16,672 bases of DNA, taken from NCBI GenBank assembly GCA_964463155.1, contig CAYXAY010000015.1:1-16672 (forward strand), written 5' to 3'. Shown here piece by piece: positions 1,284-11,262 of the stretch (positions within the stretch are counted from its first letter, which is position 1; every line of letters starts with the position of its first letter). The translations under genes and the position numbers were made by a program. Below the pieces are notes generated by a model, which had not been told where the DNA came from, made no database searches, and worked only from the letters and a program-made list of their open reading frames with translations. Origin of the DNA: an uncultured archaeon (GTDB lineage Archaea > Iainarchaeota > Iainarchaeia > Iainarchaeales > CSSED10-239).

Positions 1284-1742
1284 TTAGTGGTTAAAAATGG
1301 CCTTTATATCTTTCTTGAAGCACAGGTATTTTCCAGTCTTTTCCAGTAAAGATTTTACTACCGTTTGGTTCTCCACATTTACACTCCCATTCTGAGACAG
1401 ATTCTTCGTTGTCTTCCCAAAGAGCAGATCAATTGTTATTTCTTCTCTGGTAGGTATATCACTTCTAGCAACAACAATAAACGCATCAATCATCCTGGCA
1501 TTAGAATCACAAGAATGGTTTATACAATATCTTGCATCTTTTCCTGGTTCTTCTACACTAAATAAGTCATCGCCCCATTGAATAATTAATTTGTCTGTTG
1601 TATCTATTTTATTTAAATCATCATAATGGAAATGGTTCCGCCAAATAATTACTTTTTCGCATGGTCGGATAGGCGAAGTAGCAAACATTCCTTTGCCTTT
1701 TCCAGAAATTGCCCTAATTACAATTTTTGGGTTATAACCCAA
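1284..1742 (-). CDS. SET-domain protein (putative lysine methyltransferase)
   Basis: Has a GKGMFAT N-terminal strand, an INHSCDSNA (NHSC) motif and REEITID near the C-terminus of the domain. The only in-frame start is TTG at 1742; stop is TAA. Confidence 0.8.
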   Translation of the reverse strand: MGYNPKIVIRAISGKGKGMFATSPIRPCEKVIIWRNHFHYDDLNKIDTTDKLIIQWGDDLFSVEEPGKDARYCINHSCDSNARMIDAFIVVARSDIPTREEITIDLLFGKTTKNLSQNGSVNVENQTVVKSLLEKTGKYLCFKKDIKAIFNH

Positions 1743-1801: not shown

Positions 1802-1933
1802 TTATGAAGCTGCCCTCTTTCTTAAATATCTTCTTTCTCTTTGCTTTCTTCTCATTTTCTTCTTTTTCCATTTCCATCTTTCTCTAGATCTGGTTTTTTT
1901 GAATCTACTGCTGTCTTTTTTACGTGTTCCCAT
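1802..1933 (-). CDS. rpl41e: Ribosomal protein eL41 (43 aa; not in the supplied ORF track)
   Basis: Hand translation gives MGTRKKDSSRFKKTRSRERWKWKKKKMRRKQRERRYLRKRAAS. This is an extremely basic Arg/Lys peptide with the RWKWKKK..RR..RER pattern typical of archaeal L41e. ATG start, TAA stop. Confidence 0.7.
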   Translation of the reverse strand: MGTRKKDSSRFKKTRSRERWKWKKKKMRRKQRERRYLRKRAAS

Positions 1934-1989: not shown

Positions 1990-2084
1990 TTGTTTGCGAA
2001 CCATTGCGGATAAACCACGAAATCCATTGCGCATGAATTCCAGAAACTTTGTTTCTGGGATGCCAAAGACCAACTAGTTTTTTT
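1990..2084 (+). ncRNA. Candidate structured small RNA (G+C-rich island A), family unknown
   Basis: G+C-rich island in an AT-rich spacer. A TATA-like TTTAATATATATTA lies at 1953-1966. There is a perfect 8-bp hairpin CCAGAAAC/GTTTCTGG at 2040-2058 and a T7 run at 2078-2084. The core at 2003-2029 recurs inverted at 10658-10684. Strand and ends are inferred. Confidence 0.3.
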
Positions 2085-2103
2085 GCACGCGCAAAACCGA
2101 CTC

Positions 2104-2177
2104 TGCTCTGAGCGGGATTCGGACCCGCGTTACTGGCTTGAAAGGCCAGTGTGATTACCGGACTACACTATCAGAGC
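2104..2177 (-). tRNA. tRNA-Glu (anticodon UUC), no encoded CCA
   Basis: Hand-folded cloverleaf: acceptor GCTCTGA/TCAGAGC, anticodon stem CTGGC/GCCAG with loop CTTTCAA, T stem GCGGG/CCCGC. The T loop reads TCCGAAT, so position 55 is C. Confidence 0.92.
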
Positions 2178-2381
2178 ACATATCTAAAGTTATTTTTCTA
2201 CTTTTCAAGGCCGACTAAAAAATAGAAATATATATATTTAAGCACAAAAACATTTATATATATTTTATTTCTTGTTTTTGATAAACGAGAGTGCCATTTA
2301 TAAAGTTTATTTACTATAAATATTATATAATCTATCTTATTAAAAGGGAACTATTAACTAAAATTTAAAGGTGTAAATAAT

Positions 2382-2534
2382 ATGAACGATGCCGCAAAGC
2401 AGAGAAGACTAAAGAACATGTGGGTTTGTATGGCATGTAATGCCACAATGAGATCACCAAAGAAACCAACATTTTGTAGGAAATGTAAATCTGTAAAGAC
2501 TAGAGTAAAGAAGAAAGGTAAAAGAGCTAAGTAA
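2382..2534 (+). CDS. rpl40e: Ribosomal protein eL40 (50 aa zinc ribbon; not in the supplied ORF track)
   Basis: Hand translation gives MNDAAKQRRLKNMWVCMACNATMRSPKKPTFCRKCKSVKTRVKKKGKRAK. It has CxxC...CxxC and a basic tail like archaeal L40e. AGGTG lies ~10 nt upstream of the ATG; stop is TAA. Confidence 0.8.
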   Translation: MNDAAKQRRLKNMWVCMACNATMRSPKKPTFCRKCKSVKTRVKKKGKRAK

Positions 2535-2537
2535 ATT

Positions 2538-2566
2538 TAGTTTTTTTCTATTTTTTTATTTTGATA
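2538..2566 (+). terminator. Oligo-T tracts after the eL40 gene
   Basis: TAGTTTTTTTCTATTTTTTTATTTTG follows the eL40 stop codon shortly downstream. Confidence 0.3.
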
Positions 2567-2569
2567 AAT

Positions 2570-3610
2570 TTAAAACCATTTGCGTAATGTTTTTTGTTTA
2601 TCTACTTCGTTTCTTTTTTTTTCAAATTCTTCTAAGTAGTTTCTTGTTCTCTTTTCATCAAAGTTGGCTTTGTCTATAAGGGTGTGTTCAATCTTTTGCC
2701 TGTCAAAGATAGGCTTGTTGTAGCTTGGGTTCTTTTCTATGTCTGGCTTCATAAAGATGTCCATGACTTCCTGGTAGTCAAAGTTAATTTCTTTATTCTT
2801 TTCTTTTAATTGTTTTAAGATGTCTTCAAAGCTGTTGTTTTCCTGAACAAGCTTAAGAGCAGTCTTTGGGCCAATGCCTTCAATCTTGTCATTGAAGTCT
2901 GTTCCTATAAGAAGAGACATCCAGATTAGCTTTTCTCTTGTTATGTTTAGTTTTTCCATAACACAAGAGGTCTCAATCATATAAGGATAAACATCAATAT
3001 AGATTTTCTTAAAAGGCACTTTCTTTTTTCCAGTAACTCCAATATTCTTTAAAAGATTAGGAGAACCAAACAAAAGACAATCAAAGTCCTGAGAGACGGT
3101 GTAGTCTGTTTGTCCAATAGAAGTCATGTAAGAGATTTGAGCTTCTGCTTCTCCTGGAGCTGTAAAGCAAGGAACGCCCATGGCTTCAAGAAGTTCTTTT
3201 GATTGTTCTATAATTTTATAGTCTATGGTTATTGCTTGTCTAGAAAGCTTAGAAATATTTTCAAAATCTTCTTCTTCAATTGCTTTGTCTAGTTTTTCTT
3301 TAGCTAGTTTTCTTCTGTCTCTTCTGTCTTGTTTGGTTTTTGCTTTAAGTTCATGGCTTACACCATCATAAACAAACACTGGGTTAATACCTGCATTTAA
3401 AACATTAGAGATTCTATAAAATATTCCTGAATAATGACTTGTGATTTCTCCGTTTTCATTCTTTAAAGGCTCGCCGTCTATTCCTCTTATGGTTGTAACA
3501 AACTGAAACAACATATTGTAAGCATCAAAACCAAACCTTTTACCTTTAAAGTCTGATAGTTCAATTTTCTTCTTACAATCCTCTATTAAAGAACCTATTG
3601 CTACACCCAT
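2570..3610 (-). CDS. fen: Flap endonuclease 1 (FEN1)
   Basis: Canonical MGVAIGSLI N-terminus, with SHYSGIFYR, PVFVYDG, GEAEAQ, SQDFDCLLFG and GTDFN motifs. C-terminal PCNA-binding box QKTLRKWF. The ATG at 3610 is preferred over the upstream GTG at 3619. Confidence 0.93.
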   Translation of the reverse strand: MGVAIGSLIEDCKKKIELSDFKGKRFGFDAYNMLFQFVTTIRGIDGEPLKNENGEITSHYSGIFYRISNVLNAGINPVFVYDGVSHELKAKTKQDRRDRRKLAKEKLDKAIEEEDFENISKLSRQAITIDYKIIEQSKELLEAMGVPCFTAPGEAEAQISYMTSIGQTDYTVSQDFDCLLFGSPNLLKNIGVTGKKKVPFKKIYIDVYPYMIETSCVMEKLNITREKLIWMSLLIGTDFNDKIEGIGPKTALKLVQENNSFEDILKQLKEKNKEINFDYQEVMDIFMKPDIEKNPSYNKPIFDRQKIEHTLIDKANFDEKRTRNYLEEFEKKRNEVDKQKTLRKWF

Positions 3611-3622
3611 TTCTTTCACTTC

Positions 3623-4018
3623 TTAAATATTTAACCCAAGTTGTATAACTAAAGATAATTTCCTGTTTTTATTATCAAATCTTTTATCAAAGAAATTAAC
3701 AATTGTGCATACTCCCTGTTTTTCTCCAAATTCTCTCATTTTCTTTTCAAATACCCCCAAAATTATTGTTCCAGCGATTAATGTTATTACAGTTCCAATA
3801 CCATAAGATATTCCGTTTCTGTAAACTTCTGTAATTGCCGCAACAATAGCTCCTGCTCCAACAATTGTTGCAATTGCTGCAAAGCTAAAAAGCCAGAATA
3901 TTGTTTTTCTGTTGTTTAGAAGATAACTATTAATTCCTTCTTTTCTTGAAAAGAAAATAGCAACTCCTACCAGTATTAACAAATAAATTACTAACCAAAA
4001 CAATACGCTATCAATCAT
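3623..4018 (-). CDS. Small membrane protein resembling only the N-terminal ~130 aa of a sodium:solute symporter (SSS family); possible gene remnant
   Basis: About three hydrophobic helices. YLLNNRK..W..SFAAIATIVGAGAIV and TIVNFFDKRF resemble the SSS N-terminal region. The ORF ends 12 nt before the FEN1 start, far short of a ~500-aa transporter. Confidence 0.5.
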   Translation of the reverse strand: MIDSVLFWLVIYLLILVGVAIFFSRKEGINSYLLNNRKTIFWLFSFAAIATIVGAGAIVAAITEVYRNGISYGIGTVITLIAGTIILGVFEKKMREFGEKQGVCTIVNFFDKRFDNKNRKLSLVIQLGLNI

Positions 4019-4125
4019 ATGCCCACCAGTTAATAGCCGCCATTTAATAAATATCTAAGAACATAACTAATATAAATATAATATACATTATATATTATTA
4101 CAATATATAAGGAATGTGATTATCG

Positions 4126-5508
4126 GTGACAACTATTTTATGGGTTATTTCGATTTTTTTATTTGTCTTGCTTTGTGCAACTGCTGCAAGAGTGTTTCTA
4201 AAGCAAAAAACATTTTTATGGGTATTTATCCTTCTTCAAACACAATATCTTCTTAAGTTTGTAGATAGATTAGCTTTAAAACACCATAAAGCTTTAACTA
4301 AATTATCAATTTTTGGAATTGCAATTGGCTTTGGACCTTTTGGTGTTGATTATTTAATTAAGGATAAAGCAAGCAAGATTAAAAGAATATTTGTGTTTAT
4401 TATTTCATTTATAGTATTTACTATTGTTTCTTATTTCTTTGCCGGAAATTTGTTTTTTGGTAATCCTTTAATTCCTAAATATATTGGTTATTTTATAATA
4501 GCAATTACTGGATTTATGGGGTTGTCTGGTTTTATAATGGGTGCACTAATTTTTTCTGCATATGATATTATTGCTAAGATGTTTGTTGGTAAAGTTGCTT
4601 GCCCAGGTATTGGTCTTGTTATTCCCGGAGTACAGGTTCCTAAAACCAATTTCTATATTCCAATCTATGGTTGGATAATTTTAATTGCAGCTGCTTTTAT
4701 TCATGAGTTAAGCCATGGAATAATGCTAAGGGTTGCAAAAGTTAAACTAAAGTCAATGGGCGTAATGTTACTTGGAGTATTACCACTTGGAGCATTTGTT
4801 GAACCTGACGAAAAGAAGTTTAAAAAAATAGAAAATAAGAAAAAATTAAAGATGTATGCTGCTGGACCTGCCAGTAATCTAATTATTGCAATTATTTTCT
4901 TTATAGTATATCTTTTGATTGCTGCACCAATTAGTAATTACACAACTTCAATTGATAATTCCAGAGAGCTCGGATTAGTTGTGGGCAATGTTATTGAACA
5001 AGTTGAAATCTGTGGTTCGTCTTTTGAAAATCCAGCATTTGGTAAACTTGAAAAAAATGATTTGATTCTTTTTGTTAATGGTAGGAATATCAGCACAAGG
5101 ACAGATCTGAAAAGAGCAATAAAAAATGATTATGACAATGAGTTTGTTGTTAAAAATCTTGACACTAACATTACAAGAACAGAATATATAAGAACAAACG
5201 AGCTTGGTAACATTAGAATAACTGCTGATGTCCAGATTGACAAAAACATTCCTTTGCCAAAGAATTACACTGTCTACAAGTTAATCTATCAGATTATCTT
5301 TTGGATAATACTGCTAAACTTCATACTTGCAACAACAAACTTCCTTCCAACAGTCCCATTTGATGGAGGAGCAATGGCGCAGATAATCTTTGCTGATTAC
5401 TTAAATCCAAAAGAAGAAGAAGAAAAAAGAATGAAAAGGATAAAGAAGTTCTTTGGATATTCAGTAATACTTTTAGCATTACTAAATATTATTCCTTATT
5501 TTTTGTGA
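4126..5508 (+). CDS. Site-2 protease family (M50) membrane metalloprotease with an internal PDZ-like insert
   Basis: HELSHG (HExxH) in a transmembrane segment. NFLPTVPFDGG motif near the C-terminus. Multiple TM helices. The soluble middle region (GLVVGNV...FVNG) is PDZ-like. GTG start. Confidence 0.85.
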   Translation: MTTILWVISIFLFVLLCATAARVFLKQKTFLWVFILLQTQYLLKFVDRLALKHHKALTKLSIFGIAIGFGPFGVDYLIKDKASKIKRIFVFIISFIVFTIVSYFFAGNLFFGNPLIPKYIGYFIIAITGFMGLSGFIMGALIFSAYDIIAKMFVGKVACPGIGLVIPGVQVPKTNFYIPIYGWIILIAAAFIHELSHGIMLRVAKVKLKSMGVMLLGVLPLGAFVEPDEKKFKKIENKKKLKMYAAGPASNLIIAIIFFIVYLLIAAPISNYTTSIDNSRELGLVVGNVIEQVEICGSSFENPAFGKLEKNDLILFVNGRNISTRTDLKRAIKNDYDNEFVVKNLDTNITRTEYIRTNELGNIRITADVQIDKNIPLPKNYTVYKLIYQIIFWIILLNFILATTNFLPTVPFDGGAMAQIIFADYLNPKEEEEKRMKRIKKFFGYSVILLALLNIIPYFL

Positions 5509-5516
5509 GGGAAAAA

Positions 5517-6239
5517 ATGCCAATTACAATAAAATATGCAAGATCGTCAAAGAATTACAAACCAGGAATGTTAGATCATTTTATAACAAATATACCACAT
5601 CCACATCTGGCCGCTAGTTTTATTGTAATTAACGGAAAATATTTTGATGTTTCAAAAGAAAGACAAGAAACGCAAGTGAATCATGATTATTATAAAATTA
5701 ATGACGCAATATTTGAAAATAAATTTGAATATATCCAAAAGGGTCCAAAAATATTAATTATTAACCACAAAATAAAAATTGGACATACCCATCACGGAAA
5801 AGGAAGAACTTCTGCAACCCCGAGTATAAACGACATACGCACTTTTTTTTACGCCTATTTAAAATATGGCTCTACTTTTTGTGTGATTGTTGGAAGAGAT
5901 TATGAAGCAAACAAGATAACTGGAAAAACCATAATTGAGATTCCTATAAAATATGAAAAAACCATAAAAAACAAATATGGAAAGATGGTTGGGAAACAGG
6001 AATGGAATACACACTGGGATTGTGTTGATACTTTACTAAAAAGTCAAACAAAAAAAGGCTTGTTAAACAAAGGTCTAAAGATTACTGATAAAAACAAAGA
6101 ACTTAATGATGTAAAAAATGAATATCATAAAACGTATTTTCAAAAATTAAGTCAACTATTTGATTTAAATATTAAGATTCAAGAAGCCCCCGGATATAAA
6201 TTTAATAAAGAAACTATGTTTTTTGAAAAAATAGAATAA
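5517..6239 (+). CDS. Hypothetical protein with a possible JAB/MPN-like metal site
   Basis: ATG preceded by GAGGG. The start region overlaps the S2P stop (GTGA at 5505-5508). The motif KIGHTHHGKGRTSATPSINDI resembles JAMM HxH-x(n)-S-xx-D but has longer spacing, and no clear upstream Glu was found. Confidence 0.55.
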   Translation: MPITIKYARSSKNYKPGMLDHFITNIPHPHLAASFIVINGKYFDVSKERQETQVNHDYYKINDAIFENKFEYIQKGPKILIINHKIKIGHTHHGKGRTSATPSINDIRTFFYAYLKYGSTFCVIVGRDYEANKITGKTIIEIPIKYEKTIKNKYGKMVGKQEWNTHWDCVDTLLKSQTKKGLLNKGLKITDKNKELNDVKNEYHKTYFQKLSQLFDLNIKIQEAPGYKFNKETMFFEKIE

Positions 6240-6243
6240 AATT

Positions 6244-7650
6244 TTATTCAATTATCTCTACTGAATATCTTTGAAACTTTGTCTTTTCTCCTTTGTAGCA
6301 ATTACTGCTTAGTCCAGCCTTCTGACAAAGACTGGAAAGGAAAGAGTCTTTATCTGGAAGCTGTTCCCAGACTTGTGGGAGATAAACTGCACTTGCGGCT
6401 CCTTGCCTTAAGATAACCCCGTCTCCTTTCTTTATGTCAGTAAGAGAACAGTCCTCTGGCTTTGAAAGAATTGAAATTTCTATGTGTGTCTTTTCAAATT
6501 CCTCTTCTGTTAGACTATCAAAACGCGAATCTTGAAAAGCAGCAAACTTAGAGTTGTCAATTATTCCTTGAAAGACGGTTTTTGTGCTTGTGATGTTACC
6601 AATACACCCTCTTAATTTCCCAGAGATTGTTAAAGTCACAAAACTTCCTTTTCTTTCTAGGTATTCTTTTGGTATTGCTTGTTCTAGGTCCTCAAAGTTT
6701 TCTTTTCTTACATCAAAGATATTTTGTATTGATCTGTGTGCCAGTCGCAAAAGAAGATGTTCTTTTTCTTCAGAGAAAGCAATACTAGCATAGCCAACAA
6801 CTGTTTTTTTGTTTTTTGTGACATCTCCAGATGTTATTTGTTTTAATAGTTTTGGTTTATCCCACTTTCTTATCTTAGCAATTTCTGCTAATACCAATAT
6901 GGGATTTTTACCACAAGCATCTATTTTGTTATTTTTTGTATTGTCCAATATTTGCTGTATTGTTTTATTATCAATTTCTTTTGCTTTTTCTTCTGGTAAA
7001 TAATGAGAAAGATCGCTTGAGACAATTACTATTGTATTTTCGGTAATTTCTTTGTTTATTTCTTTTGCAATTTCTTGTATTTCTTTTTCGTTTACTTCTC
7101 CAACAATTATAGGAACAATTGTAAATTCTTTTCCTGCTTTTTTAAAGATATATTGTAAGAAAGGAAGCTGAACCTCAATTGCATGTTCTTTTTCATGTGG
7201 CGAATTGTTTATTTCTGCATTTATCTTCGTAGAATTTACTTTAATTTCTCCAAGAGGGGTTCTAAAGACATTATAGTCAGATACAACGGCCCCTTTAATA
7301 TACTCTGTGTGGTTTGGTGCAAGAATAATAACTTTGTAATTATCTTCTTTTCTTAACAATAAATCCAAGTAAAGCTCTTTATAACCAAACATTGCAGTTT
7401 GCCCAGAATAGAGGTATCCTGCGTGTGGAACAATAAGTGCATTTATTTTCCCCCCAACATAATTTATTTCTATTTTTTCAAAAAAGGTATCTAATTGACT
7501 TGTAAGTATTAATTTATTTTCAGGATAAAAACTTCCTGCGACTGCTGGCTTTCTAAAATTATTATCATTCATATTTCCCACAATTGCCTGTGATATTATT
7601 ATTAAAAATATAATCAAAGAAAAAACTATTGCTTTTATTATTTTACTCAT
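6244..7650 (-). CDS. Fusion protein: N-terminal signal/anchor helix + Memo-like domain (AmmeMemoRadiSam protein B type) + AMMECR1 domain (protein A type)
   Basis: Memo motifs: PAVAGSFYP, LIVPHAGYLYSG, SSDLSHY, DACG. AMMECR1 motifs: GSFVTLT..GKLRGCIG and SAVYLPQVW. The N-terminus KIIKAIVFSLIIFLIIISQAIV is hydrophobic. Its ATG overlaps the upstream gene's TGA (ATGA). Confidence 0.85.
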   Translation of the reverse strand: MSKIIKAIVFSLIIFLIIISQAIVGNMNDNNFRKPAVAGSFYPENKLILTSQLDTFFEKIEINYVGGKINALIVPHAGYLYSGQTAMFGYKELYLDLLLRKEDNYKVIILAPNHTEYIKGAVVSDYNVFRTPLGEIKVNSTKINAEINNSPHEKEHAIEVQLPFLQYIFKKAGKEFTIVPIIVGEVNEKEIQEIAKEINKEITENTIVIVSSDLSHYLPEEKAKEIDNKTIQQILDNTKNNKIDACGKNPILVLAEIAKIRKWDKPKLLKQITSGDVTKNKKTVVGYASIAFSEEKEHLLLRLAHRSIQNIFDVRKENFEDLEQAIPKEYLERKGSFVTLTISGKLRGCIGNITSTKTVFQGIIDNSKFAAFQDSRFDSLTEEEFEKTHIEISILSKPEDCSLTDIKKGDGVILRQGAASAVYLPQVWEQLPDKDSFLSSLCQKAGLSSNCYKGEKTKFQRYSVEIIE

Positions 7651-8555
7651 ATCTTTCTTATATATTCTGTATTTTCTAACAACGGATCAAACAGAAATAT
7701 TTTGTCTTTTTTTCTATCATAATAAATATTATCAAAATCCAAAATATCTGTTATTATCCTATTGTCGTCTATTCCATATTTTTTTTTATTTTTTAATTCT
7801 TGATAAATCTTATCTTTTGCATCTTCTATATATTCTTTTATTTCGTGTATTTTTGTTAAAGAAATTAGTCTTTCAGTAACCAACTTTTTTAAATGATATC
7901 CATTTAGTAATTCCGGAACAAAATCATAAACTATGTAACTTTTTTTACTTTCAAAATCTTTAAATGCAAAATGATGACTAATTATTGGTATTCCACAATC
8001 TTGAATTAAAGATAGTGCTTTTGCTTCACTAATACCATCAATCCCTCTTTCAATATAATCTCTAAAAGAAGAGGTGTTCTTATTTCCACTTGTTCTTTCT
8101 AAAATGCCGGAATTATTTGTTTCTTTTATAAAAAATCTCTTTATTTTTCCATTGTGTTTAACTGACAAGACATAAGCAACGTTTGTTGTTCTAACCGACG
8201 GCAGCATCAAGTGTCTTTTTATTTCAAATCTGCCTTCTGGGGCTTTATATTCTTTTAGTCTTTCTTTTGATACTCTATAAAATTCTCTTAATAGTCCTGG
8301 GGTTGCGCGTATTATCTGTTTTGCTAATTTAGAATATCCTAGTTCTTTTGTTTTAGATTCTACAAATCTAAATCTTGGATTTTTTACTTTTTCTTGAATT
8401 TCTATTTTTTGTCTTTCATTTAGAAATCTTAAGAAGTCTTTTTTTCTTTGTGTTCTTTCTTCAGGAGTTAATGTTAATTTAGTTTGATAAATGTGCTTTC
8501 TTTGTTCTCTTCTATTCATTGACTTATTTAGATTTATTTGCCTATTTTTAACCAT
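7647..8555 (-). CDS. Uncharacterised paralog P1 (longest copy, all motifs intact); possibly an atypical RIO/Bud32/Kdo-kinase-like fold
   Basis: Shares with P2 the motifs GYS..KQII..PGLL, ERL..YK.P.GRF.IK, FFIKETN, GIDGISEAKAL.LI, SYIVYDF, and DN.YY...K.KIFLFDP. The ATG at 8555 is preferred; a TTG alternative lies at 8564. It overlaps both the HIT stop and the Memo-AMMECR1 start. Confidence 0.8.
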   Translation of the reverse strand: MVKNRQINLNKSMNRREQRKHIYQTKLTLTPEERTQRKKDFLRFLNERQKIEIQEKVKNPRFRFVESKTKELGYSKLAKQIIRATPGLLREFYRVSKERLKEYKAPEGRFEIKRHLMLPSVRTTNVAYVLSVKHNGKIKRFFIKETNNSGILERTSGNKNTSSFRDYIERGIDGISEAKALSLIQDCGIPIISHHFAFKDFESKKSYIVYDFVPELLNGYHLKKLVTERLISLTKIHEIKEYIEDAKDKIYQELKNKKKYGIDDNRIITDILDFDNIYYDRKKDKIFLFDPLLENTEYIRKI

Positions 8556-8964
8556 TTTCTGCAAGTTTTAATTTATTTGCTAAACTTTCTAAATCTTCTT
8601 TTTGATATCCTGTATTTGGCCAGGTTTTATAATCATCAGTATCAAATCGTGGAACAATGTGGAAATGAATATGAAATACTGATTGTTCTGCTGATTGTCC
8701 TGAAGCATTTAATATATTTACACCAGTACAACCAAATTTTACCTTATAATTAATTGCAATCTTTTGAGTAACTTTAATTATTTTTTCTAAAATCTTATCC
8801 TTACAATCAAAGATGTTTTCATAATGTTTTTTTGATATCACAAGCGTATGTCCTTTAGCTATTGGGTTAATATCTAAAAACGCAATTACTTTCTTATCCT
8901 CATATACCTTATAACTATGCATTTTCCCTTTTGCAATCTTACAAAAAATACATCCTTTTACCAT
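8548..8964 (-). CDS. HIT (histidine triad) family nucleotide hydrolase/transferase
   Basis: Histidine triad HIHFHIVPR, plus CIFCKI and AFLDINP..GHTLV motifs. AGGAG lies 10 nt upstream of the ATG. Confidence 0.9.
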   Translation of the reverse strand: MVKGCIFCKIAKGKMHSYKVYEDKKVIAFLDINPIAKGHTLVISKKHYENIFDCKDKILEKIIKVTQKIAINYKVKFGCTGVNILNASGQSAEQSVFHIHFHIVPRFDTDDYKTWPNTGYQKEDLESLANKLKLAENG

Positions 8965-8970
8965 TTTTTT

Positions 8971-9069
8971 TCATCTCCTTTGTTTTTTTAATAATATTGG
9001 GTCAAATACATAGAATTTTCTTTCTTTTAAACTGTAGAAAGTATTATCTGTGCCAAAATCATAAACCCC
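8971..9069 (-). other. In-frame continuation of P2 beyond its TAG stop (32 codons + TGA), still encoding the family's C-terminal motif
   Basis: Hand translation after the TAG at 9070-9072 gives GVYDFGTDNTFYSLKERKFYVFDPILLKKQRR. This aligns with the P1 C-terminus DNIYYDRKKDKIFLFDPLL. It ends 6 nt before the HIT start codon. Confidence 0.6.
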
Positions 9070-9681
9070 CTAATATTGATCTAACCCAAATTTGTGAAAT
9101 TTGCTATTAATCCTTTTTTCTAAATCTTCTATTTGTTTCTTAAGATTCTTATATCTTACGGTTGTTATTTTATCTTCTCTTAATAAATCATCAATTGTTT
9201 TTAATTGCGAAAAATCACTAGTAATAAAACTTACTTTTCTATTTGGATCAACAAAAGACAGATGAGCAGAAATTACTTTTACGTCTTTTTCTTGTGCAAT
9301 TAATTCTATTGCCTTGTGCTCACTTATCCCATCTCTACCGTGTCTATATTTTATATCAAAACTATAACATCTATCTGGATTTCTATCATTACTTTCTTTA
9401 ATAAAATATTTTGTACCAATTGTAACTATATATACTGAATTTGTATTAGTGTTATTTCTTGGTTTTTCTTGTTTTATACTAAATCTTCCTAATGGATCTT
9501 TATAAAAATATAATCTTTCTGTTACAACTTTATCAAATCCTGCTAAAATTCCGGGATTTTCTTTTATAATCTGTTTTCCGTGTAAAGAATATCCCTGTTC
9601 TTTTCCTGAATGACTTGAATGAAATACACTATTTCCTATTTCTTGTTTAATTGTACTTTTTGTATTTTTTACCAAAGCCAT
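9070..9681 (-). CDS. Uncharacterised paralog P2, truncated by an in-frame TAG (possible pseudogene or readthrough gene)
   Basis: Clear similarity to P1 (GYS, KQII.ENPGIL, ERLYFYKDPLGRFSIK, YFIKESN, GRDGISEHKAIELI, VSFITSDF). GGAG RBS before the ATG. The stop is TAG, with conserved sequence continuing in frame. Confidence 0.75.
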   Translation of the reverse strand: MALVKNTKSTIKQEIGNSVFHSSHSGKEQGYSLHGKQIIKENPGILAGFDKVVTERLYFYKDPLGRFSIKQEKPRNNTNTNSVYIVTIGTKYFIKESNDRNPDRCYSFDIKYRHGRDGISEHKAIELIAQEKDVKVISAHLSFVDPNRKVSFITSDFSQLKTIDDLLREDKITTVRYKNLKKQIEDLEKRINSKFHKFGLDQY

Positions 9682-9693
9682 TTTTTACTCCAT

Positions 9694-10446
9694 TTACTCT
9701 AATTGATAATCTTCTGCTGTAAATCTTTTCTGATATTCAAATCTATTTTTTCTTAAATCTACTTCTGGATTAAATACTACAAATAGTCTTGTTGTTGGAT
9801 TAAATAAAATTTCGTGTTCTTTATAGAAACTAAATAATAATTCTTCTCTTGTTGGTTTTGTTTTTTTTAGTTTTGATAATATCTGGTGGTAATATTTAGA
9901 ATTTATGTTAAAAACATTATTTTCAAATTCTTTAATCTCAGTTTCAGTTAAAGTTCTTGCTTTTTTTGCTTTCTCAATGGTTTGTAATTTTTCTAATTCT
10001 CTATAGTCATAAGCAATATAGCTTTCTCCTTTTTTTAAATTACTATATGCAAATTCCACAGGGACTGTATTAACTCCATGTGCTTCTAATTCTGACATAA
10101 TTACTGCCGAATTATATGCGTGATTTCCCCAAGTTCTTTCTTTATTTGTTTGTTCTATCTTTCTAACATAAAGTTTTTGTTCTTTAGTTTCAATTGAGAA
10201 AGAATTAGGAGATTTTAGTTTTTTAAATGAGAAATATTTTGTTGTAGAAAAACTTTTTCCGTCTCTTATAAATTTTAAAAACTTAAGAATAAGACTTGGA
10301 TTTTCTTTTAATGTAACTCTTGTCTTTGGAGTAATAGCTAAAGCTACATTAACTTTTTCATTAAACTCCAATCTTGGTTTTCTTAGTGGTTTCCCAATAA
10401 TTTTGGAATATATTGGATTCTTAGAAATATCCAATCTTTTTCTCAT
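9694..10446 (-). CDS. Uncharacterised paralog P3 (divergent copy; acidic residues of the C-terminal motif replaced)
   Basis: KENPSLIL, LYVRKIEQTN, ELEAHGVNTVPVEFAYSNLKKGESYIAYDY and LFVVFNPEV align to P1 and P2. The start was moved to the internal ATG at 10446, because the track's N-terminal 54 codons run through tRNA-Gly. Confidence 0.75.
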   Translation of the reverse strand: MRKRLDISKNPIYSKIIGKPLRKPRLEFNEKVNVALAITPKTRVTLKENPSLILKFLKFIRDGKSFSTTKYFSFKKLKSPNSFSIETKEQKLYVRKIEQTNKERTWGNHAYNSAVIMSELEAHGVNTVPVEFAYSNLKKGESYIAYDYRELEKLQTIEKAKKARTLTETEIKEFENNVFNINSKYYHQILSKLKKTKPTREELLFSFYKEHEILFNPTTRLFVVFNPEVDLRKNRFEYQKRFTAEDYQLE

Positions 10447-10514
10447 ATACAAATAGTGAAAGATAACTCTTAAATAGGTATTTATTAGACAAAAATAGAC
10501 TATAATTAAAAGAG

Positions 10515-10586
10515 TGCAACTACCGGGATTCGAACCCGGCTCATCAGCTTGGAAGGCTGAGATCCTAACCGCTAGACTATAGTTGC
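10515..10586 (-). tRNA. tRNA-Gly (anticodon UCC), no encoded CCA
   Basis: Hand-folded cloverleaf: acceptor GCAACTA/TAGTTGC, anticodon stem TCAGC/GCTGA with loop CTTCCAA, T arm CCGGG-TTCGAAT-CCCGG. Length 72 nt. Confidence 0.93.
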
Positions 10587-10708
10587 ATGACCGTTTGCGC
10601 TCAGTCAACGCGCAGCCAAAACTTTGATGGTACTAATTGGTTAGGGCAGCTCGCACTCAGTGGATTTCGCGGTTTATCCGCAATAATTACTTGGCTTGCG
10701 CGCCACCA
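10587..10708 (-). ncRNA. G+C-rich structured 5' leader of tRNA-Gly, or a separate small RNA (island B), family unknown
   Basis: G+C-rich island abutting the tRNA 5' end. A long-range helix pairs 10609-10619 with 10691-10702 (11 bp with a 1-nt bulge). The core at 10658-10684 is the inverted copy of 2003-2029. A TATA-like element lies just upstream on the minus strand. Confidence 0.3.
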
Positions 10709-10715
10709 AAATTCG

Positions 10716-10738
10716 TTTATTCTATTAATATTTAGTAG
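10716..10738 (-). promoter_or_regulatory. Candidate TATA box for the island B / tRNA-Gly transcript
   Basis: The minus strand reads CTACTAAATATTAATAGAATAAACG, roughly 15-30 nt upstream of GGTGGCGCGC, where the G+C-rich island begins. Confidence 0.25.
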
Positions 10739-11230: not shown

Positions 11231-11262
11231 CATTGCGTGCGAGCCGAGCAAAACCGGCTCAG
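11231..11262. repeat. Third G+C-rich island: 6-bp hairpin plus short motifs shared with islands A and B
   Basis: Sequence CATTGCGTGCGAGCCGAGCAAAACCGGCTCAG. Hairpin GAGCCG/CGGCTC at 11241-11260. GAGCAAAACCGGCTC matches GCGCAAAACCGACTC (2089-2103) at 13/15. ATTGCG and GTGCGAGC also occur in A and B. It overlaps the stop codon of the 510-aa gene. Confidence 0.35.

Follow-up and report, generated by a model that had tools for sequence, protein, structure and literature searches.

The window analysed here is a stretch of 16,672 nt (contig CAYXAY010000015.1) from an AT-rich (30% G+C) DPANN archaeon. It begins inside an archaeal 16S rRNA gene, recognised with Rfam at 1-960 on the minus strand, and encodes FEN-1, a site-2 protease, a Memo/AMMECR1 fusion, HIT, dUTPase, agmatinase and others. 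Homologues of the FEN-1 protein at 42-59% identity are labelled Iainarchaeum or Diapherotrites (DPANN), and the closest ones carry no informative name. Two complete tRNA genes lie on the minus strand, tRNA-Glu(UUC) at 2103-2178 and tRNA-Gly(UCC) at 10514-10586, both called with ARAGORN and with Rfam (69 and 66 bits, respectively, each over model positions 1-71 of 71). Upstream of tRNA-Gly is a TATA-like AT-rich box, AAATATTAATAGAAT (10719-10733, minus strand). Between this box and tRNA-Gly, and again directly downstream of tRNA-Glu, the DNA forms a G+C-rich island, and the two islands are linked by a long inverted repeat. The repeat, and the family of hairpin elements to which both islands belong, are considered below.

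The 27-nt arm ATTGCGGATAAACCACGAAATCCATTG at 2003-2029 (plus strand) is the reverse complement of 10658-10684 with two mismatches (25/27, 93%), as described in the initial annotation, which had also placed both arms in G+C-rich islands beside tRNA genes and had judged a chance origin very unlikely. All of this was borne out. G+C content is 44% in the island at 1991-2102 and 49% in that at 10587-10712, against 16-28% in the adjoining spacers and 30% in the window outside the 16S gene. A second match to the 27-mer arose in 0/200 dinucleotide shuffles, and a composition-aware estimate, admitting any word equally rich in G+C, gives approximately 3e-5 such pairs per window. Beyond the 27/28-nt core the islands are neither significantly similar nor complementary in shuffle tests (n=500): local alignment of the islands outside the core was equalled or bettered in 49/500 shuffles, and the duplex energy of the tRNA-proximal flanks in 31/500.

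The window was compared with syntenic loci from approximately 10 related genome groups (L025-L047, of which L025 is an independent, second assembly of the window's own strain). Copies were sought with motif scans and an nhmmer profile (--max) in about 240 kb of overlapping syntenic DNA. This search of relatives, which the initial annotation had proposed, yielded copies at tRNA flanks, and the evidence for the family comes from about 12 flanks in about 10 genome groups of a single syntenic neighbourhood. Copies sit in the tRNA-Gly leader and in the trailers of tRNA-Ala(CGC), tRNA-Ala(AGC) and tRNA-Glu, all of them no more than 100 nt from a tRNA gene. The sole other nhmmer match lies within a coding region of the window (11231-11260) and is marginal (E=0.011). 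In the scanned loci no copy was found at tRNA-Tyr, at tRNA-Ala leaders or anywhere in the tRNA-Ala clusters of L039-L041.

The copy in the tRNA-Glu 3' trailer (1991-2102, minus strand; nhmmer E=2.5e-20) is a long form of about 112 nt, running from 2102 down to 1991, where the same site in L026, L029 and L031 holds only about 10 nt. The insert is also missing from L032-L037, L039-L041, L044 and L047; it occurs in no genome group examined other than that of the window, and is a recent gain. Two tRNA-Ala trailers, one behind tRNA-Ala(CGC) in L026 and the other behind tRNA-Ala(AGC) in L042, are collinear with the whole of the window trailer, at 86-89% identity over aligned columns under lenient gap penalties. 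A short form (55 nt) follows tRNA-Ala(CGC) in L033 and a mini form (35 nt) follows tRNA-Ala(AGC) in L026; the long form is the short form enlarged by a two-hairpin internal module of about 55 nt. One hairpin of this optional module, which is confined to long forms, is CCAGAAAC-AAA-GUUUCUGG (2040-2058, minus strand), identical in L042 and present in L026 with compensated differences.

The second copy is inverted relative to the first and occupies the tRNA-Gly 5' leader (10587-10712, minus strand; nhmmer E=9.8e-28), between the TATA-like box and the tRNA gene. The box is kept in all four aligned leader sequences, element present or not. It presumably acts as the tRNA-Gly promoter, and the copy would then be transcribed as a 5' leader of approximately 115-125 nt. 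L026, L032 and L035 have a short form of about 80 nt, which matches the 66-70 nt of the window copy nearest the promoter at 92-96% identity; the allele of L044-L046 is strongly divergent, and the leaders of L028, L029 and L047 are reduced to 13-17 nt, CGAAACCGATTC-like. An extra 45 nt (10605-10649, minus strand) appear as gap columns of the leader alignment and are confined to the window genome and its second assembly; the last 15 nt before tRNA-Gly are also altered relative to those of relatives. Together these two segments resemble a second mini unit of the family placed beside the tRNA. Leader elements, when reverse-complemented, align with the short form.

A GGTTTCG-like motif stands at an offset of 4-8 nt, mostly 6, from the tRNA in 11 of 12 flanks, in leaders and trailers alike, with that of the leaders on the opposite strand. 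In L029 the tRNA-Gly leader closes with 17 nt (CGCGCGAAACCGATTCA) that, when reverse-complemented, match the opening 17 nt of the L026 tRNA-Ala(CGC) trailer exactly, and this similarity ends precisely at the mature tRNA ends. Trailers begin 0-2 nt after the discriminator base. The two islands are members of one family, and the polarity of the element is fixed: its GGTTTCG end is always proximal to the tRNA, about 6 nt from the mature end. Since polarity is fixed and both tRNA genes lie on the minus strand, a copy in the 5' flank of one and a copy in the 3' flank of the other are necessarily inverted. The inverted repeat is best explained as a by-product of the common descent of the copies and of their fixed orientation towards the tRNA, and is not a switch. 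Of the first reading in the initial annotation, two oppositely oriented members of a small-RNA family, the single family and the inverted arrangement hold; its members are not free-standing genes but inserts in pre-tRNA 5' leaders and 3' trailers, found also at the tRNA-Ala genes of relatives.

The annotation had further suggested that the arms are recombination or inversion sites bracketing an invertible 8.6-kb segment, since a 25/27 inverted repeat does enclose it. However, the order dUTPase/tRNA-Gly, FEN-1, tRNA-Glu is the same in every spanning locus, all spanning assemblies being collinear with both, one or neither repeat present, and L025 crosses the second arm in the same configuration. 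The segment holds conserved housekeeping genes (FEN-1, site-2 protease, HIT, Memo/AMMECR1), and no recombinase domain was detected in the nine window open reading frames (ORFs) scanned against Pfam, 5/9 of which lie in or beside the 2.0-10.7 kb segment; three paralogous ORFs of the segment gave no Pfam matches in this check. Two of the four ORFs outside that scan, 6244-7650 and 8548-8964, belong to the segment and have orthologues in relatives annotated as Memo/AMMECR1 and HIT. An invertible segment is hardly credible on these data.

The best-conserved unit of the element is a hairpin of 4-6 bp, here designated P3, with its flanking GGATTTCG and CAAT. These three parts make up the minus-strand reading of the first arm, and the P3 consensus, GYGS-YUUAU-SCGC, lies inside the 27-mer. 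In the trailer copy P3 is GUGG-UUUAU-CCGC (2006-2018, minus strand), supported by folding and pair counts; in the leader copy it is UUGCGG-AUAAA-CCGCGA, of 6 bp (10667-10683, minus strand), and is found again in the consensus fold of five leaders. The hairpins are conserved through compensatory substitutions. Across eight copies of P3 one pair has gone from G-C to C-G and one from C-G to U.G, while slid controls scored lower and had no pair changed on both sides; in L044 a wholly different stem, CGCAG/CUGCG, stands at the P3 position. Of the 18 pairs in the consensus fold of five leaders, 4 have changed on both sides; one nt upstream of the tRNA this fold contains the hairpin GAGCYN-loop(CGAAAC)-NRGCUC.

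The strand on which the elements fold best is generally that of the tRNA, which folds 2.4-5 kcal/mol better than the antisense strand in 5/6 copies. Two wobbles are informative, GUGG/CCGC in the window trailer and GCGG/CUGC in the L035 leader. Both pair on the transcribed strand only, and the two copies concerned carry the element in opposite orientations; read on the other strand, the G.U pair of the window trailer becomes an A.C mismatch. Compensatory pairs, the strand bias in folding and wobbles that pair only as transcribed together constitute modest evidence that the inserts are constrained at the level of RNA, as parts of pre-tRNA transcripts.

The tRNA-Glu copy could be taken instead for an independent small-RNA gene on the plus strand (approximately 1990-2085), convergent with tRNA-Glu. 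The plus strand of 1984-2102 gives the best fold of the tested copies (-35.0 kcal/mol, z = -3.85, 0/200 shuffles), an AT-rich TATA-like stretch lies upstream (1953-1988), and a T7 run is found at 2079-2085. The T7 run, however, is a window-specific variant of the internal module, which reads TGCTAAACAAAT in L026 and L042, and the AT-rich box is, in the alignment of tRNA-Glu trailer sites, the conserved promoter region of a small basic ORF on the opposite strand. The wobble pair of P3 belongs to the minus strand, and the homologous tRNA-Ala trailers of relatives leave no room for such a promoter. A separate plus-strand gene is therefore very improbable.

More can be said for the third reading of the initial annotation, pairing in trans between transcripts of the same strand. 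The tRNA-Gly leader and the tRNA-Glu trailer, both from the minus strand, would be a functional sense/antisense pair annealing through a 28-bp core, and the duplex would couple or regulate the maturation or turnover of both pre-tRNAs or provide a double-stranded RNA substrate. In the window genome such a duplex is indeed predicted: trailer 2026-1999 pairs with leader 10688-10661, the cofold reaches -100.4 kcal/mol against -69.6 for separate folds, and the duplex energy is -85.2 against -48.6 +/- 5.0 in shuffles. The two window copies also have derived states in common that are not seen in relatives, namely a near-identical P3 and TTTGCGC in place of TTTCGC. The geometry recalls the split-tRNA halves of Nanoarchaeum equitans, in which a G+C-rich stretch after one gene complements a stretch before a distant one (PMC3491384). 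Here, in contrast, both tRNAs are complete, the complementarity is not conserved in relatives, and the predicted helices end at leader position 10603, so that the last 16 nt before tRNA-Gly stay unpaired or pair among themselves, leaving no bulge-helix-bulge. The tRNA-Glu partner exists in the window genome only; the L026 leader and tRNA-Ala trailer gain just 4 kcal/mol on cofolding. Compensatory changes keep the intramolecular hairpin and break leader-trailer complementarity, which outside the core is not above chance. The shared derived states suggest that, in the window lineage, both copies arose recently from a single master copy or underwent gene conversion, and either accounts for them equally well. 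A regulatory duplex is, for these reasons, distinctly unlikely.

Presence, absence and allele replacement of the element differ among close relatives. It stands behind different tRNA-Ala genes in L026, L033 and L042. Between the window and L032 the element is 95.5% identical, against 82-88% for neighbouring genes and spacers; between L044 and L032 the reverse is seen, the element being only 75% identical with 20 gap columns, against 96.5-97% for neighbouring genes and 100% for the tRNA. Judged by these identities, element and flanks are phylogenetically incongruent. As a separate observation, L044 and L032 are 96.5-97% identical in dUTPase and the gene after it but 85% identical in FEN-1, a shift within 6 kb which suggests that homologous recombination may be frequent between related populations.

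Such turnover could be that of a selfish repeat acting at the DNA level only, moved by a transposase whose gene lies elsewhere and lacking any role as RNA, with the hairpins serving as transposase recognition structures in single-stranded DNA. Candidate models are miniature transposable elements with inverted repeats (MITEs) and, in bacteria, the repetitive extragenic palindromes (REPs) and REPINs mobilised by RAYT transposases (PMC3116915, PMC3733652). As in REPs and REPINs, the elements are short, non-coding, intergenic, hairpin-forming, present in either orientation and variable in presence, and would often be co-transcribed at gene ends; palindromic units are present, the long forms are imperfect extended hairpins, and the long leader form is like a REPIN doublet. 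As in MITEs, including archaeal ones, they are non-autonomous, 40-125 nt long, polymorphic for insertion and built of nested or modular variants, and their G+C content is foreign to the genome. However, a REP is an imperfect palindrome of 20-40 nt with a conserved GTAG or CGTC tag (PMC3733652), and this hallmark is not found family-wide, GTAG occurring only in the L026-type leader (GGTAGCGCGC); the host is an archaeon, and neither a transposase nor a RAYT gene was seen in the loci. Against a MITE, there are no terminal inverted repeats, the best match of the first 25 nt to the reverse-complemented last 25 nt being only 5-6 nt in trailer copies; between filled and empty sites about 10-15 nt have been replaced, with no clean target-site duplication visible in the alignments; and the element is G+C-rich in an AT-rich genome and found only at tRNA flanks. 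A strict position at tRNA gene ends, with fixed offset and polarity, is atypical of either kind of repeat, and in either orientation of the element the transcribed strand is the one favoured by G.U asymmetries and by fold energies, which argues for constraint at the RNA level. Selfish DNA with no role as RNA is thus an unlikely account.

The reading preferred here, to which a probability of roughly 0.6 is assigned, is that one hairpin element, lineage-specific, modular and rich in G+C, is lodged in two copies in transcribed tRNA flanks, and that the arms are its best-conserved unit. The elements would be co-transcribed with the tRNA, given that the leader copy lies between the presumed promoter and the tRNA and that trailers begin so close to the tRNA that a promoter of their own would not fit; trailers in relatives end in a T-run. 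The leader would be removed by RNase P and the trailer by tRNase Z. RNase P removal of the leader is plausible because L026 has an RNase P RNA candidate at 16785-17023, of 52 bits (Rfam gathering score 84; E=2.7e-12) with the whole model covered, which may be a reduced or divergent RNase P RNA of this lineage. Selection would keep the elements self-folded as RNA. Copy-and-paste or recombination may carry them from one tRNA flank to another, in the manner of a selfish repeat that is tolerated, and they may in addition contribute to the processing or stability of pre-tRNAs or to the formation of their 3' ends.

Several observations weigh against this account. The P3 covariation score was reached by 25/500 shuffles, individual fold z-scores are only -0.9 to -3.9, and the tRNA-Glu copy is the exception to the strand bias, its antisense (plus) strand folding at -35.0 kcal/mol versus -33.0. 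The signature of mobility is absent: terminal inverted repeats, a clear target-site duplication and a transposase are all wanting in the loci. Purifying selection, in place of exchange, could be what keeps leader elements highly identical between some genomes, and populations are generally mosaic, so that background recombination could account for part of the incongruence. Restriction to tRNA flanks is drawn from some 240 kb of overlapping DNA, about 12 flanks and one neighbourhood, and it is the geometry that points to co-transcription and processing.

A bolder version of the hairpin-element reading would have an archaeal mobile hairpin installed specifically at tRNA gene ends, with its junctions at the RNase P and tRNase Z sites and its polarity a mirror image on the two sides. 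This would need insertion guided by the symmetry of the acceptor stem or by processed RNA ends, for example if a released leader were copied onto the 3' end of a tRNA. To our knowledge such a mechanism has been described in neither archaea nor bacteria, and we regard it as speculative and rather unlikely. It may also be that leader and trailer copies work as sense and antisense partners in the metabolism of pre-tRNAs. Mobile elements that target tRNA genes include yeast Ty3, Dictyostelium TRE5-A, integrative elements at tRNA 3' ends and type V-K CRISPR-associated transposons. These too insert near but outside tRNA genes at a defined distance; unlike the 35-125 nt hairpin described here, which lies on both sides of tRNA genes in mirror-image polarity, they are large, protein-coding or derived from such elements, and have known machinery.

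Among known systems the element appears most like a selfish hairpin repeat of the REP, REPIN or MITE type and the tRNA-linked 'mobile' small RNAs (sRNAs) of N. equitans. In that archaeon tRNA-Val is followed by C/D box sRNA8, one of the 'mobile C/D box sRNAs', and plant tRNA genes joined to small nucleolar RNA (snoRNA) genes are cited in the same paper (PMC3491384). In such dicistronic arrangements a structured RNA of variable location lies directly downstream of a tRNA gene, uses the tRNA promoter and has its 5' end set by tRNase Z cleavage. The element trailers likewise abut the tRNA 3' end; the same element, however, also occurs inverted in a 5' leader. No box C (RUGAUGA) was found on either strand of nine copies, and these copies have no C or D boxes and no snoRNA or sRNA match in Rfam. 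The element lacks the defining features tested for these systems, that is tags or terminal repeats, C/D boxes, half-tRNAs and a bulge-helix-bulge junction.

Additional candidate identities were rejected. A single split RNA gene, made of the segments of 72 nt and 71 nt that separate the arms from the tRNAs, was discarded because the islands are insertions missing from close relatives. A guide RNA for 16S rRNA was rejected by a k-mer check, the longest perfect complements of the cores in 16S being 0 and 8 nt. The arms are not archaeal rRNA-operon processing stems, as they enclose protein genes on both strands and the 16S gene (1-960) lies outside them; a relic of such stems was also considered and rejected, since the 16S flanks of L026 show no significant similarity and nhmmer found nothing there. 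Rfam, run in E-value mode on the window and L026, returned only 16S rRNA, tRNAs and the sub-threshold RNase P RNA of L026, with no family matching the element even at E<=1. Scanning of 185,579 species genomes with the 20-mer GCGGATAAACCNCGAAATCC gave 24 matches, all bacterial and of 42-69% G+C, and the exact core in no archaeal representative. The bacterial matches are unrelated to the element, many lying in one conserved alphaproteobacterial sequence context that is presumably coding. A metagenome scan with a degenerate P3 pattern, too narrow for copies of the L042 type, found one contig, the syntenic L032. Viral contigs scanned for the element motifs gave 0 matches, so that nothing points to an origin in viruses or plasmids. 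Literature searches brought up no account of hairpin repeats at tRNA flanks in DPANN archaea. The element is best explained as a new, narrowly distributed family of tRNA-flank hairpins.

Further features of the surrounding regions can be noted. Directly downstream of the tRNA-Glu trailer lies the small basic ORF mentioned above (1802-1933, minus strand), of 43 aa and extremely basic (MGTRKKDSSRFKKTRSRERWKWKKKKMRRKQRERRYLRKRAAS), with DNA 94.7% identical to that of relatives; by eye it resembles ribosomal protein eL41, and it has no Pfam match. Between it and the 16S gene is a SET-domain ORF (1284-1742, minus strand; Pfam E=2.9e-7), which looks like another lineage-specific insertion because L026 has only about 350 nt of non-coding DNA at this position. 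Downstream of tRNA-Gly are the three paralogous proteins, without Pfam match (7647-8564, 9070-9681 and 9694-10440, minus strand), for which relatives have at most two recognisable counterparts. An ORF listed at 9694-10608 passes through tRNA-Gly, and its true start is probably the ATG at 10440, as in L032.

In relatives, three tandem tRNA-Ala genes (CGC, AGC, TGC) lie downstream of the 16S gene, each behind a near-identical AT-rich promoter-like box (L026 15380-15890, L033 5565-6018, L039 9543-9926). No 23S gene stands beside that 16S gene in the syntenic DNA examined, and the rRNA operon appears to be unlinked. A second, unrelated family of tRNA-trailer hairpins, TGCGTTTTTC...GAAACACGCGG with optional nested hairpins and fold z-scores of -2.1 to -3.6, occurs at L026 15891-15925, L033 6019-6115 and L042 1387-1490. 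It follows tRNA-Ala(TGC) in L026 and L033 but tRNA-Ala(CGC) in L042, and thus also moves between tRNA flanks. At L039 15333-16466 a tyrosine-recombinase (Phage_integrase) gene lies right after an intron-containing tRNA-Tyr, an arrangement typical of an element integrated at a tRNA gene and unrelated to the hairpin family.

The elements are useful strain-level markers, as genomes with 97% identity in the flanks differ in whether they have the element and in its allele. They also carry a warning for the study of other AT-rich genomes, in which long G+C-rich inverted repeats between distant tRNA flanks may reflect shared ancestry of repeats and are not necessarily signs of switches or split genes. 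If the pattern holds genome-wide, a reduced DPANN archaeon would possess a small repeat family tied to tRNA gene ends, on both sides and with fixed polarity. That would show how the leaders and trailers of pre-tRNAs can gain long structured inserts without harm to tRNA maturation, and would offer a way into the question of how non-coding repeats originate and move about in archaeal genomes with seemingly almost no DNA to spare.

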